Assembly (NCBI GenBank): GCA_963727455.1 | Contig: CAVSGG010000008.1 | Span: forward strand, 416,001 to 480,000 | Direction of reading: 5' to 3' | DNA: 64,000 nt | Source: Candidatus Krumholzibacteriota bacterium | GTDB lineage: Bacteria; Krumholzibacteriota; Krumholzibacteriia; JAJRXK01 | In this document: positions 58,709 through 64,000 of the stretch, one piece after another | How positions within the stretch are numbered: position 1 is the stretch's first letter | Layout of the letters: every line of letters begins with the position of its first letter | The notes under the pieces: generated by a model | Seen by the model: only the letters and a program-made list of their open reading frames with translations | Database searches by the model: none | What the model was told of the DNA's origin: nothing | Program-made: the position numbers and the translations under genes

Positions 58709-59197
58709 ATGACGATGACGGAGTTGACGATCGGCCGCAAGGCACCGGCGTTCACCGCCAAGAACACCGACGGGAAAAGCGTTTCCCTGAACAAGGACAT
58801 CGTGGGCAAGCCCGCGGTCATCTATTTCTATCCCAAGGACGATACTCCGGGTTGCACGAAGGAGGCTTGCTCGATTCGGGACCACTGGTCCGAGCTGAAG
58901 CGTCGTCACATCCAGGTGTACGGAGTCTCTCCCGACGACGCGGAGAGCCATGCGAAGTTTCGCGACAAGTTCAAGCTCCCCTTTCCCCTACTCTGCGATC
59001 CCGGCCACAAGATCGCCGAGAAGTACGGCGCCTGGGGCGAGAAGAACCTGTACGGCAAGAAGACCTTTGGAATCAAACGCAGCACCTTCCTCTTGGACAA
59101 GGAAGGCCGCATTCAGCACATCTGGAAGAGACCGGACGTGAAGCGGCACGCCGAGCAGATTCTCGAGAAGCTCGATGAGTTCAAAGCCAAGAAGTAG
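58709..59197 (+). CDS. bcp: peroxiredoxin, BCP/PrxQ family
   Basis: YFYPKDDTPGCTKEAC, RSTF. Confidence 0.92.
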   Translation: MTMTELTIGRKAPAFTAKNTDGKSVSLNKDIVGKPAVIYFYPKDDTPGCTKEACSIRDHWSELKRRHIQVYGVSPDDAESHAKFRDKFKLPFPLLCDPGHKIAEKYGAWGEKNLYGKKTFGIKRSTFLLDKEGRIQHIWKRPDVKRHAEQILEKLDEFKAKK

Positions 59198-61061
59198 CCG
59201 CTTTGTGATGCTGTGCGAGGGCGCGCTGGCTGGAGGGCTCTTCGGCGCGCTCGACGCACGTTGGGCGATTCAGGGTACGCATCCGCCCCTTCTCTCCCCT
59301 TTCGAGTGGTGGAGCACCTGGATCGTAGCGCTCGCCCTGGGGGCAGCGTGGGGATGGGTCGCCGCCTTCGTGCTCTCGCTCTTGGCGAGACGCGCGACGG
59401 CGGCCGTCCACGGTCTCACCGTGGGAGCGGCCCTGGCTCCGCTGGTTTTCGCGGCGGTGTTCCTGCGCACGCGGCCCCACTTCGGGCCGGAAGGCAAAAT
59501 GGCTACCCTCGCCGTGGCCAGCGGAATCGCCACCTTTTGTCTCGCGCTCCCCGTAGTTCTCTCACCCACTCTGCGACGGCGATTGCTGCTCCCTTTGGGG
59601 CTCGTGCTCGCGTTTGCGGCCACTCTCAGCGGGGTACTGAAGGCGCCGCGGGCGACGGAAAACACCCCCGTTCCCGCCGAAACGACTGCGGACTCCACTC
59701 CCTCCCTTCTCCTCATCACCCTCGACACGACGCGCTTCGATCACCTTCCTCCGCAGGCACGGTTTCTCGATCCCAAAGGTTTCCTCGAGGGCCTCGATCG
59801 CAAGGCCACTCGCTGGGCCAACTTGACGGCACCCATTCCGCTGACCGGGCCCTCGCACAGCAGCCTCCTCACCGGGCTCACGCCCCTAGAGCACGGAGCC
59901 CAGGACAACGGCTGGCCCATCCGGCCGGGGGTGAGAACCTTGGCGCAAGAGCTTCGCGTCCGGGGATACCGTACCTGTGCGATCCTTTCGTCTGCGGTAC
60001 TTCACCCCGATCTCTGTGGTCTGGATCGTGGCTTTGATGTTTATGACGATTCGTTCCGGCCCGCAGCGCCCATGCGACGGCTAGCCGTCGTGGCCAGCGC
60101 CGAACGGATCGCGCGCTGGCTCACCCGGCGTTCCAGCGGACTGAGCCGACAGCGTCGTGCCCAGGAAACGGTGCAGAACGGCCTTCGCTTTTTGCGCCGG
60201 CATGGACGCCAACCCTTCTTCCTGTGGCTGCACTTCTACGACGCGCACGCCCCCTACCAACCCCTGGGCGCGCCCCCGACGCCGGGTGTTCTGCCCGCGC
60301 TCGCGCGCGAACCGACTCTGAGTGAAGACCCCGACTATTGGCAAAAGCGGCGCGCCTACGCGCAAGAGATCGAGGAAGTGGATCAGGCGCTCACGCGCCT
60401 CCAACGCGAACTGGCGCGCATGGACTTGCTGAAGCAAACTCTCATCGTGGTGGTCACCGACCACGGCGAGAGTTTCGGTACCCACGGCCACGGCTTCCGC
60501 TTCGATCACGGCGCCTATCTCTACGAAGACGAATTGCACCTCGCCGCGTGGTGGCTCGAACCAAACAGCGAGTCCCCTTCGCCGGGTGTCCATCAGGAGC
60601 AGAGTGAAGAGGGCGGGCAAACGCGCACGGTGACCCGCGCGGTGGGCGTGGATGCGCTGGGACGCGCGCTGCTGAGACGTTTCGCGGTGCGGGCGGACAG
60701 TCTGAGCTTTCGCGGCTATAGCCTCTCGCACTCTTCGGTGGCGAACGACACCCTTTGGTTCGATCTGCGCCGGCCGGATTGCAAGTTGATCGCGGGCCGT
60801 ACCCCCTCCGGCGCGATCCTCTACGAGGCGTACGACCTGCAGCACGATCCCGACGAAACCAGCAATCTGCTTCCGGATTTCCAGCCCCCGAGCCGCCACC
60901 ACGAAGCACTTCTCGGGTCGAGAGCACGCGTCGACTGGGAGAAGGACGAGACGATTCTCTCCAGCTACGCGCAGCGAATCCTGGAGAGTTTGAAGCAACC
61001 CCGGCCCGAGCTGTCCGAAAGTGCTCGCGCGCGCCTCAAGAGTCTGGGCTACCTGCGTTGA
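59175..61061 (+). CDS. membrane-anchored sulfatase-like (alkaline phosphatase superfamily) protein
   Basis: About five TM helices, then ITLDTTRFD, LTGPSHSSLLTG, HFYDAHAPY, TDHGE, LKSLGYL. Confidence 0.88.
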   Translation: MSSKPRSSRFVMLCEGALAGGLFGALDARWAIQGTHPPLLSPFEWWSTWIVALALGAAWGWVAAFVLSLLARRATAAVHGLTVGAALAPLVFAAVFLRTRPHFGPEGKMATLAVASGIATFCLALPVVLSPTLRRRLLLPLGLVLAFAATLSGVLKAPRATENTPVPAETTADSTPSLLLITLDTTRFDHLPPQARFLDPKGFLEGLDRKATRWANLTAPIPLTGPSHSSLLTGLTPLEHGAQDNGWPIRPGVRTLAQELRVRGYRTCAILSSAVLHPDLCGLDRGFDVYDDSFRPAAPMRRLAVVASAERIARWLTRRSSGLSRQRRAQETVQNGLRFLRRHGRQPFFLWLHFYDAHAPYQPLGAPPTPGVLPALAREPTLSEDPDYWQKRRAYAQEIEEVDQALTRLQRELARMDLLKQTLIVVVTDHGESFGTHGHGFRFDHGAYLYEDELHLAAWWLEPNSESPSPGVHQEQSEEGGQTRTVTRAVGVDALGRALLRRFAVRADSLSFRGYSLSHSSVANDTLWFDLRRPDCKLIAGRTPSGAILYEAYDLQHDPDETSNLLPDFQPPSRHHEALLGSRARVDWEKDETILSSYAQRILESLKQPRPELSESARARLKSLGYLR

Positions 61062-61295
61062 ACGAGGCCACAGCCTCCTCCCGTGCGGGAATGACCGAGT
61101 GGGAACAGGCATGATGGCATCTTCGCCTACGGCCCGGGCAGCCTCGAGCAGGAGTTCAGGGTGGTGCTTGTCGTTCTCTCCCGGTGCGGCTAAGTTCAAC
61201 CGGAGCTTGGGCGGAAGCCGCGGAAGAGAAGATCCTGCGCCCTTTCGGCCCGGCCCCGATGTCCTCGCAGCCATTTTCCTTCGAGGTGTTCCGCG

Positions 61296-61895
61296 GTGAG
61301 CATGTCCGAACTCGAGCTGGACTTCGTGCGACAGGGGATTCGTTCCAGCATCGAGTTGAAACAATCTCTGTTGGATCAGGCCGCAACCATCGCTGCGATG
61401 GCCAAGGCCGTCGCCGAGGCTCTTGGCCGAGGAGGCTCTCTTCTGGCCTTTGGAAACGGAGGCAGCGCCGCCGACGCGCAGCACATCGCCGCCGAACTCA
61501 GCGGCCGTTTCGAGCGGGAACGTCCACCGATGTCGGCCGAGGCCCTGACCGTGAATTCCAGCGCGATCACTGCCATCGGGAACGACTACGGTTTCGAGGA
61601 GATCTTCGCGCGCCAACTCGAGGGACGCGCCCGGCCGGGAGACATTGCCCTGGGGATTTCGACCAGCGGGAACAGTCCCAACGTCCTGCGCGCCCTGAGG
61701 CTGGCCAAGACCAAGGGACTGCGCAGCTTGGGAATGACGGGAATCGGCGGGGGTAAGATGGCAAGCGAGGGAGTGTGTGATCATCTCCTGATGGTTCCCA
61801 GTTCGAACACCGCCCGGATCCAGGAATGCCACATCCTGGTGGGTCACCTTCTCTGCGGATGGCTCGAGAAAGAACTCCACGGCCGCACGCAATGA
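61296..61895 (+). CDS. gmhA: D-sedoheptulose-7-phosphate isomerase
   Basis: GNGGSAADAQH, NDYG, STSGNS, RIQECH. Confidence 0.95.
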   Translation: MSMSELELDFVRQGIRSSIELKQSLLDQAATIAAMAKAVAEALGRGGSLLAFGNGGSAADAQHIAAELSGRFERERPPMSAEALTVNSSAITAIGNDYGFEEIFARQLEGRARPGDIALGISTSGNSPNVLRALRLAKTKGLRSLGMTGIGGGKMASEGVCDHLLMVPSSNTARIQECHILVGHLLCGWLEKELHGRTQ

Positions 61896-63106
61896 TGAGA
61901 TCCAGGTGGTTCGTCCTCTTCGCCCTGCCGATCTACGCGTTTGCCATCGCTGCCCCCCTCTCCGTCGCGGTTGGAGCAATTTGCGCCGGGACCCTCGCCG
62001 TCCTTGCCCTGGTGCGTTGCTTCGTTCGCCCGCGACCCTACGGGGCCGTCCCGCGCTCCCTCGCCCTCGTCCTCCTCGCCTACTTCCTGGCTCACCTTTG
62101 CGCGACCGTGTTCGCGGCCCCCTATCCCAGCAACTGGGGCAAACTGCTGGGAGAAATGTGGCTCAAGTTGCTGCTGATCTCCGTGCCAGTGGTGGCCTTC
62201 GGCCTATCGGAACACGTCCGGCGCGCCGTCAAACTTCTCCTTCTGGTGGGCGCCGCAGTCGCCGTTTACGGAATCTGGCAACACTTCAGCGGAGTCGATT
62301 GGTGGCACCATCGCGCGGCGCCCATGACCGGTGGTCAGTACATGTCGGTGGCGTTCTTCGGCCATCACCTGACCTACGGCGGCCACGTCATGCTGCTGTT
62401 CATTGTATCGGTGTCCTGGGCTCTTCTCAGCCGCGATGTGAAGAAGCTCGAGCGCGCGCTCGCAATCTGTGCTGCGGTTCTCACGGGCCTGGCGCTGCTC
62501 TGGTCCTTCGCGCGCAGCGCCCAGATCGGAGCACTGGTCGGGGTTCTCGTCCTTGGCATCGCGATTCCCCGGCGGCGCAAGTGGATCGCTCTGGCGCCGC
62601 TTTTGGCAATGGGCGTGGCCCTTCTAGCCACCCCCGCTCTCATGGCGCGCGTGACCGCGCTCTTTGAGCCGGGCGCCGAAGAGACCCGCAGAAATCTCTG
62701 GAGTTCCTCGGTGCAGGGAATTCTCGCGCGACCGTGGCTGGGCTTCGGTCCGGGGAACTTCGGCCGCATGATGCAGGGCTACGAGGTCCCGGGCTTCTAC
62801 GATACGAAGTCCCACGCCCACAACGACTTCCTGATGCACGGGGTGAACGCGGGCGCCTTGGGACTGCTCGCGGCGCTCGCGCTCCTGATCCTCAGTATGG
62901 TCCTTCTGTGGAGGGCCCGGCGAGGCGCAGTCCGCGGGGCCTTCCTCCTCACCGGAGTGTTCGCGTGCCAGGCCGGAATCTCCATCGCGGGGCTCTTCCA
63001 GGTCTACCAGACCGACGACGAGGTGGAGATGTTGCTCTATTTCCTCCTGGGAGCGGCCTTTGCCCTGGCCGCGCGCCGCCAGCCCTCGCCGCCGGACAGC
63101 CCCTGA
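61892..63106 (+). CDS. O-antigen ligase (WaaL/Wzy_C) family protein
   Basis: Multi-TM, SFARSA, R..LW...PWLGFGPGNF, HAHN. Confidence 0.88.
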   Translation: MMRSRWFVLFALPIYAFAIAAPLSVAVGAICAGTLAVLALVRCFVRPRPYGAVPRSLALVLLAYFLAHLCATVFAAPYPSNWGKLLGEMWLKLLLISVPVVAFGLSEHVRRAVKLLLLVGAAVAVYGIWQHFSGVDWWHHRAAPMTGGQYMSVAFFGHHLTYGGHVMLLFIVSVSWALLSRDVKKLERALAICAAVLTGLALLWSFARSAQIGALVGVLVLGIAIPRRRKWIALAPLLAMGVALLATPALMARVTALFEPGAEETRRNLWSSSVQGILARPWLGFGPGNFGRMMQGYEVPGFYDTKSHAHNDFLMHGVNAGALGLLAALALLILSMVLLWRARRGAVRGAFLLTGVFACQAGISIAGLFQVYQTDDEVEMLLYFLLGAAFALAARRQPSPPDSP

Positions 63107-63320
63107 CCGCCCCCACTCTTGGCTGGCTCCCTCTCGTCCACTCTTCTTGGAACCACCCGCGCAGCTCCCCTTCGTTCGGGCCGATTGAGCACCGGGATTC
63201 CCGCGCTCCACTCTCGGCATCCGCCTTGCTGGATGACGCGATGCCCGGGGCTTCCCTCGCCATCTCCTCCCTAAGGGAGCGGATGTGCCCCGGGCGAAAC
63301 ATTCAACGGGGATGTGTGCG

Positions 63321-64000
63321 ATGCCGTATCGAGCTGCCGCGAGATTGGATGGACCGGGGATTCTGGCCACTGCAAAGCCGCCGCGAAAGAGTAGCGACTT
63401 TAAGCCCTCGATCATCGCCACCGTCTCCTGTAGCACTCCGGTTCTGCGTGGCGTGGATCTGATACGTCTGGATGCAGCCCACGGTACTCTGGCCGAGATC
63501 ACTCGCACCCGCACGTACTACTCCTGTCCCGCCATCCTGGATCTGCCCGGGCCCACGAGCACCGCGCGGACCAGCCTTCTCACCACAAGCGAATTTCTGA
63601 TCTTTGCCGCGGCCGAGGGATTCGACTGGGTCACGCTCAATGGCGTGCGTGAGCTCCGCGAGATTCAGCACGCGCGCGAACTCTTGCTGCCCTCGATTCA
63701 AATCGCGAGTTCCAGCTCTGCGCCCGAGGAACTCGGGGACACCCAACTCGAGTCGATCGTAGCTGCGAGCGATGCCTTGGTTCTCCCGTACGGACAACTC
63801 GCGCTGAGAATCGGTGGGGATCGGGCGCGCCAGCAGGTCGGACGGGCTCTGGTCGCGTGTGCGCGGCAAGCTCGTCCTCTCCTGCTCTCGGGAGGTCTTC
63901 TGAGCACCATGGTGGATTCCCGAATGCCGGAGATCTCGCAACTGGAATGGCTCGGCGAATTCGCCAACGCCGGCTGTGCCGGCTTCGTACTGACTGAAGA
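63321..64000 (+). CDS. pyruvate-kinase-like barrel protein, degenerate, no B domain (runs off the window)
   Basis: Manual translation: SIIATV, GVDLIRLDAAHG, AILDLPGP, GFDWV, SIVAASDALV, LLSTMV, GCAGFVLTE are collinear with the PK A domain. Confidence 0.75.
   Translation, partial: MPYRAAARLDGPGILATAKPPRKSSDFKPSIIATVSCSTPVLRGVDLIRLDAAHGTLAEITRTRTYYSCPAILDLPGPTSTARTSLLTTSEFLIFAAAEGFDWVTLNGVRELREIQHARELLLPSIQIASSSSAPEELGDTQLESIVAASDALVLPYGQLALRIGGDRARQQVGRALVACARQARPLLLSGGLLSTMVDSRMPEISQLEWLGEFANAGCAGFVLTE

Follow-up and report, generated by a model that had tools for sequence, protein, structure and literature searches.

The reading frame at positions 63321..64163 of the forward strand, of which 63321..64000 lies in the window (the whole 64,000-nt stretch of DNA analyzed here), appears from sequence comparisons to encode a real and conserved descendant of pyruvate kinase (PK), which would work as other pseudoenzymes do rather than as an active PK-family enzyme. 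We refer to this protein as pseudo-PK. Our preferred reading of its function, held tentatively and at somewhat less than an even chance, is that of a non-catalytic binding protein, either adaptor or sensor, that is induced through sigma-54 as part of a surface-attachment and motility program. PK is among the best-conserved glycolytic enzymes, and a literature search, which placed most subscription journals outside its scope, turned up neither a natural PK pseudoenzyme from bacteria nor an account of a natural lidless PK.

The frame, which had been predicted to be open to the window end with neither stops nor frameshifts, indeed continues to a stop at 64163, 163 nt beyond the window (G000:C8:479321-480163, G000 being the genome assembly that holds the window), and encodes 280 aa. 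Its ATG at 63321 was invariant across all six of the upstream regions aligned. The original prediction also described the gene as uncalled, which is true of the window but not of public protein sets, where homologs are called and two of 12 carry the label 'pyruvate kinase'; we flag these labels as mis-annotation, since they belong to members of the pseudo-PK family.

Profile models recognized the protein below their thresholds. Specifically, Pfam PF00224 gave 15.8 bits (E 0.008; cut-off 30) and TIGR01064 gave 23.9 (curated cut-off 306.4). In a phmmer search of the PDB the top match was a PK (E 5.4e-8), and the family profile matched PK at E 1.3e-20. The AF2 model, built from 13 sequences, had a mean pLDDT of 80.9, with eight strands across residues 31-224 and low-confidence tails at residues 1-24 and 251-280. 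Similarity to the PK fold was found by Foldseek with this model, only PKs being among the matches listed (best E 7e-15), and in VIA-align PK reached Z 25.4 (rmsd 2.7, 226 aligned), with the next family at Z 19.3. Pseudo-PK is a predicted (beta/alpha)8 barrel of the PK type and, in the model, consists of the barrel alone between two disordered tails, one at each terminus. The motifs IIAT, RLDAAHG, and ILDLPGP were all present in the order claimed by the original prediction and aligned with canonical PKs in multiple alignments. The deletion of the B (lid) domain was likewise borne out, and to it we add the loss of the C domain and of most of helix alpha-1. In the alignment, a DLPG-x9-LTTSE loop (63540..63593, forward strand) stands in for the whole lid domain and has the length seen in an intact lidless clade, the RxNGAFG clade, treated below. 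Each tail carries a short motif. The N-terminal one, AARLD (63336..63350, forward strand), lies in the low-confidence region (pLDDT under 50) and, in the form [AS]AxhD, is present in 13 of the 20 full-length family members checked; the C-tail motif comprises A260 (29/29 family members) and R261 (25/29). Two sources place the PK active site between the barrel and a mobile B lid and mention PKs that have no C domain (PMC10176505; bioRxiv 2024.06.25.600556), and the available part of PMC10943388 gives docking contacts only, with no documentation of catalytic roles.

The catalytic replacements that had been predicted, ASSS for AKIE, PYGQ for ARGD, SGG for ATQ, and PEISQ for PTRAE, hold in the alignments. 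Four residues of these PK motifs (Lys, Glu, Asp, and Thr) are essential for catalysis. We tabulated the site in 29 family members, 14 intact RxNGAFG lidless relatives, and 24 lid-bearing PKs, labeling the aligned positions by the PKM2 residue numbers that we take to correspond. The protein of genome G009 was missed by the motif used in building the set of 29, in which the near-copies M052 and M053 are uncounted; the lid-bearing controls exclude P0055 (truncated) and L069, and P0027-P0029 and P0033, which are fragments or frameshifted, were unused. S131-S132-S133 (63711..63719, forward strand) occupies the place of K-I-E, which in PK supplies the catalytic Lys and the Mg ligand Glu, and neither Lys270 nor Glu272 was retained in any of the 29 family members, as against 14/14 and 24/24 in the control sets. 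PYGQ (63786..63797, forward strand) places Q159 at the Asp position of ARGD, and across the family Asp296 was retained in seven, Arg294 in six, and the Gly in nine of 29 members. Similarly, SGG (63888..63896, forward strand) places G191 at the Thr position of ATQ; Thr328 was kept in a single family member, with Ser in seven others. In both control sets the Lys, Glu, Asp, and Arg were invariant and the Thr position was T or S. PEISQ (63927..63941, forward strand) replaces PTRAE and its inter-subunit Arg, a residue already missing in 14/14 of the intact RxNGAFG proteins. Other positions were retained, namely R49 (Arg73; 29/29), D74 (Asp113; 28/29), and E227 (Glu364; 24/29), or changed in a family-specific manner, with Asn75 becoming D51 in 29/29 members and Ser243 becoming R107 in 22/29, the latter being Asn in this pseudo-PK. 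On these counts over the 29 family members, the Mg/pyruvate half of the site appears to be erased and the phosphate/cation half remodeled.

The remodeled half bears on what the protein may bind. The original prediction offered a metabolite sensor as one role. This is possible in general but not as PK-style sensing of PEP or pyruvate, because the Mg/pyruvate half is erased and pseudo-PK has no output domain. A small-molecule sensor or sink, in which a pocket formed by T34, R49, D51, D74, R107, and E227 would bind a phosphorylated or anionic metabolite or a nucleotide as its main function, is in our judgment unlikely. The frequencies of the last five of these residues given above, all at strand C-terminal ends, argue for it, as does a ligand-binding developmental role reported for a full PK in Stigmatella (PMC3126691); yet the Mg/pyruvate ligands are gone, pseudo-PK itself has Asn at the R107 position, little is left of the basic loop that took the place of the lid in the ancestor, and an effector domain is lacking. 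The same pocket might instead serve a new reaction, the barrel having been re-tooled through R49, D51, and D74, and the invariant, family-specific change from Asn to D51 at the pocket face would be consistent with this, given also that PK-like barrels include lyases and aldolases (CitE and HpcH, Z 15-19). We nevertheless regard a new enzyme as distinctly unlikely: just three pocket residues are near-invariant, two of which are ancestral, the metal ligands that PK-like barrels have in common are missing, with free variation at their positions, and the gene stands outside any enzyme operon, behind a promoter motif of its own.

The adaptor form of the preferred reading draws on the distribution of conservation along the barrel. 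Family-wide identity was 0.49 in the N-half and 0.33 in the C-half, the reverse of canonical PK (0.43/0.54), and helix 3 reached 0.66 in the family compared with 0.35-0.38. Conservation thus appears to have shifted from the barrel C-half, the site of catalysis and the subunit interface in PK, to the N-half, chiefly helices 2-4, with surface positions taken from secondary structure rather than from coordinates. The newly conserved helices, along with the two short tail motifs, would then form a protein-binding surface. In close pairs, dN of the N-half and C-half was 0.081/0.059, 0.209/0.172, 0.230/0.187, 0.273/0.214, 0.078/0.079, and 0.259/0.243; the N-half therefore does not change more slowly, which weakens the step to one binding face. 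Moreover, many of the invariant residues (D46, R49, D74, R119, D151, and G218) were already present in the ancestor and could have a structural role.

The gene is under purifying selection. Nei-Gojobori dN/dS was 0.13, 0.17, 0.22, 0.27, 0.12, and 0.21 in six pairs (upper 95% bootstrap bounds 0.18-0.37), so that neutral evolution was not seen in any of them. The neighboring genes in the first pair spanned 0.02-0.25, a range that includes pseudo-PK, and the canonical PK pair had a value of 0.075, about half that of pseudo-PK (0.13). A slowly decaying relic might be read from this doubled ratio, from the long branches, and from one frameshifted homolog (P0029) and some fragments among the matches. 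Against such a pseudogene stand ratios far under 1 in 6/6 pairs, frames open at all nine genome loci, a conserved start and promoter motif, and family members as divergent as about 25-30% identity; decay appears largely refuted on this sequence evidence, and we consider it extremely improbable. The original prediction of a pseudoenzyme under selection is upheld by these ratios and the conserved promoter motif, together with orthologs that share the deletion, which were found among the pseudo-PK homologs. With catalytic residues lost across orthologs and purifying selection kept, pseudo-PK appears to be a pseudoenzyme in the usual sense.

A word-based search recovered 12 homologs among 7,998 candidates, of 261-284 aa and 35-94% identity, and the full phmmer scan added the more distant members, of similar length. 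Among 208 Krumholzibacteriota genomes, the profile at 1e-20 gave 10 matches, consisting of G000, seven of the nine other genomes of its family, and two fusions. Pseudo-PK was therefore carried by eight of 10 genomes of one family, all eight of which also have a full-length PK. The two remaining family genomes, G003 and G007, have neither the gene nor orthologs of its flanking genes, so its absence may be an assembly gap; G003 also has no canonical PK. The two fusion matches, both from family f3, were rejected as members, being PK-ATP sulfurylase fusions in which K-[IV]-E and IDRGD are intact and which fall outside the family in trees; they were dropped as candidate ancestors too. A plasmid match (H4) was likewise rejected and is a normal full-length PK. 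The distant members L048 and L050 have the same gene order as the pseudo-PK locus. Within G000, about 220 kb and 40 kb are duplicated at 85% identity (C8:260690-498684 versus C9:12-228961, and C2 versus C6). The assembly probably co-bins a related species, and its two PKs and two pseudo-PKs are accordingly not to be taken as true paralogs.

We pursued the origin of the family in three trees. In a FastTree reconstruction of 78 rows the family formed one clade inside the RxNGAFG group, beside P0025; a quick IQ-TREE mixture-model tree of 40 rows had the same nesting with support of 98-100 (SH-aLRT 98-99); and in a 22-row tree the nesting had an SH-aLRT of 96, with grouping with the PKs of the host family rejected (p-AU 6.7e-6). 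The RxNGAFG group thus encloses the pseudo-PK family in all three trees, in each of which long branches are a caveat. Members of this clade (P0025, P0032, P0035, P0038, P0043, and P0239) are lidless PKs with a basic R-x-K-x-R loop, and K-x-E, D-R-x-D, and T/S were kept in 14/14. Because the family lies within a clade that has no lid yet is catalytically intact, the losses of the lid and of the PTRAE Arg appear to have come before the loss of catalysis. The lid deletion, which the original prediction had treated as a mark of the pseudoenzyme, is real but was no part of the inactivation.

RxNGAFG proteins were fused to an NTP transferase, a cytidylyltransferase, an ATP sulfurylase, or a CysN-like GTPase, and these four fusion types, taken by themselves, suggest that the clade may belong to glycan-modification islands. 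The fusions are also candidates for a dedicated NTP supply or for new phosphotransfer chemistry. In the host phylum the clade was not found among the best 150 matches listed, all of which start at profile position 46 or later, and no phage record matched P0035 over 80% of its length. More generally, lidless PKs that keep K/E/D/T are not rare. Additional, independent lid losses were noted in the 385-aa P0250, P0298, and P0300 (with a C domain and Chloroflexota or Dehalococcoidales labels, the proteins so labeled spanning 380-386 aa) and in the barrel-only P0255, P0260, and P0291 (Parcubacteria or Micrarchaeota labels). A viral contig encodes a lidless IDRGD PK distinct from the RxNGAFG clade (L069:501-1238), beside a transketolase C-terminal gene and glycosyl- or methyltransferase-like genes and ahead of phage head-tail genes. 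A further architecture, in L044:271-2544, L043 (G031 and G036), and P0042, consists of a PK barrel and lid fused to ATP sulfurylase, again with no C domain; from a motif reading, the L044 fusion adjoins a sulfotransferase-like gene.

This separate origin also bears on the regulatory subunit that had been predicted, a proposal now weakened for canonical PK. A subunit that enters the oligomer of canonical PK to inhibit or regulate it would have the same fold, and every carrier genome encodes a canonical PK. However, pseudo-PK does not descend from the host PK by the p-AU value above, is about 21% identical to it, and lies 169 kb from its gene. Furthermore, the C domain is gone, and a Gln, Arg, and Asp that were invariant in all 24 lid-bearing PKs, at positions that we take to be the barrel-barrel interface, are replaced, with the Gln in 0/29 family members. 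With interface residues and C domain gone, we hold such a role to be very improbable.

The upstream region supports the regulatory side of the preferred reading. A sigma-54-type (-24/-12) promoter motif, GGCAY-N5-TTGCW, lies at 63216..63230 on the forward strand as an exact-spacing match; the sigma-54 consensus is a GG-N10-GC element. The strict pattern was present upstream at 14/14 pseudo-PK loci, compared with 0.0005 expected per 200 nt, where the motif was first noticed on the same loci and then counted, and where three loci nearly duplicate, or are closely related to, others in the set. A sigma-70 scan gave 0 sites. Judged from this motif, a sigma-54 promoter of its own likely drives transcription of pseudo-PK. 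G000 encodes one RpoN and has 19 activator-domain matches. Its 19 strict motif matches in total were not above the 21 of the reversed control, but 15 of the 19, including those of the two pseudo-PK copies, preceded a gene on the same strand. The corresponding proportions were 2/22, 0/23, 2/13, and 0/18 when the spacer was shifted and 1/21 when the pattern was reversed.

Strict matches fronted genes for a PilB-type ATPase with MshEN, a GGDEF protein, GAF-HD and other GAF proteins, a bactofilin, a FliA-like sigma factor, a Fis-type HTH protein, SPFH, a lipid A acyltransferase, and a 2,850-aa Ig-repeat protein (adhesin), and relaxed matches added PilM and PrkA. Three of the 19 proteins scanned behind the motif had no Pfam match. 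Viewed as a whole, G000 has a compact predicted sigma-54 regulon of type IV pili, c-di-GMP enzymes, bactofilin, the FliA-like sigma factor, and the giant Ig-repeat protein; a shared sigma factor does not imply a shared pathway. Following the promoter motif is a predicted 5′ leader hairpin (63243..63295, forward strand) that is kept within the genus. The 90-nt leader folded at -41.6 kcal/mol (z -2.85), with two-sided change at five of 17 consensus pairs in five sequences and a covariation term of about zero, and Rfam gave no gathering-level match to it, with two chance-level snoRNA matches only.

Upstream of pseudo-PK, positions 59175-63106 of the window hold a sulfatase, a GmhA-like SIS protein, and an O-antigen-ligase-like gene in series. 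The last (61892..63106, forward strand; PF04932, E 1.4e-16) is not beside pseudo-PK in G008 and G009. In the C9 copy and in relatives a SAM methyltransferase, uncalled in the window, lies between the sulfatase and gmhA. Just past the window, a degenerate TagF-like GT-B gene (G000:C8:480180-481217, or L001:6180-7217; reverse strand) is convergent with pseudo-PK. At 9/9 genome loci this neighbor, of 310-350 aa, is tail to tail with pseudo-PK and downstream of a hexapeptide acetyltransferase. It had no Pfam match above cut-off, and its predicted fold was nearest to UDP-GlcNAc 2-epimerase and TagF-like polymerases (Z 19-20); it aligned to a PF04464 protein at 94% probability, with the LHP and SDYS motifs replaced. 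It is family-restricted, has a dN/dS of 0.20-0.33, and is probably a second pseudoenzyme. Farther along, L001:16783-18084 (reverse strand) encodes a 433-aa protein that by eye resembles a RelA/SpoT-type nucleotidyltransferase domain protein.

The two genes could form a module of two pseudoenzymes that acts on the synthesis of envelope glycans, in which the sigma-54 transcript may run antisense into the operon of the neighbor. Their presence in the same eight of 208 genomes, the tail-to-tail arrangement, and the neighbor's GT-B fold with replaced motifs all fit such a module, which we nonetheless deem improbable. The genes lie on opposite strands, no sigma-54 motif was found for the neighbor's operon among the strict and relaxed matches in G000, and in L048 and L050 an extra gene lies between them. 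Moreover, the whole region is syntenic within the family, so adjacency says little, and both genomes that lack the pair, G003 and G007, also lack the flanking orthologs, so that the joint absence is uninformative as to co-loss.

Taken with the preferred reading of a sigma-54-induced binding protein, the evidence suggests a sequence of events in which an ancestor of the family would have acquired a lidless, still-active RxNGAFG PK of the kind elsewhere fused to nucleotidyltransferases. The Mg/pyruvate half of its site would then have been erased, the phosphate/cation half kept and remodeled through the retained R49 and D74 and the changes to D51 and R107, and an enhancer-binding activator would now switch pseudo-PK on alongside pilus, c-di-GMP, bactofilin, and adhesin genes. 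A fuller version, which we consider possible but doubtful, is that this is the first bacterial PK pseudoenzyme family, a lidless kinase that one Krumholzibacteriota family captured from a glycan island, that was inactivated at its Mg/pyruvate site and brought under a sigma-54 promoter, and that is now a ligand-gated adaptor through which a phosphometabolite or nucleotide signal would reach the pilus and c-di-GMP machinery. The ancestor in this version would be an undescribed lidless PK clade with a basic loop for a lid, working fused to PPi-releasing nucleotidyltransferases. The range is narrow, being one family of an uncultured phylum; the series is traceable, from full PK to lidless PK with an intact active site to dead barrel with a new promoter, and as the protein is small and soluble, its activity, ligand, and partner are directly testable.

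Among known systems, PK itself (EC 2.7.1.40; PF00224, TIGR01064; PDB 7UEH, 5WRP, 3E0V, and 2E28) has the same (beta/alpha)8 barrel order, and equivalents of its R73, D113, and E364/T365 are retained in pseudo-PK, but it has the B domain, C domain, full alpha-1, and catalytic Lys/Glu/Asp/Thr that pseudo-PK does not. The RxNGAFG clade is closer, having in common with pseudo-PK the short first loop, the exact length of the lid-replacing loop, and the absence of the C domain and of the PTRAE Arg. It differs in its motifs RxNG[AS]F, K-x-E, and D-R-x-D, where pseudo-PK has RLDAAH, SSS, and PYGQ, and in its basic lid-replacing loop, which is eroded in pseudo-PK. Sugrue et al. are said to have found in 2020, by lid deletion in E. 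coli PK, that the lid is important and not essential. Engineered lid-deleted PKs (human liver PK, PDB 7QDN; E. coli) are, like pseudo-PK, barrels without a B domain. Unlike pseudo-PK, they retain both a C domain and the residues of catalysis. Degenerate barrels also serve as receptors in the inactive EAL domains of LapD and FimX. These belong to a family unrelated to pseudo-PK, in which no c-di-GMP binding motif was identified, and the likeness lies in the reuse of a dead TIM barrel for binding in a surface-lifestyle circuit. Finally, PykA of Stigmatella aurantiaca is reported to bind indole and to be required for development (PMC3126691), and is thus a PK-family protein in signaling, but one described there as a pyruvate kinase and not as a dead barrel.
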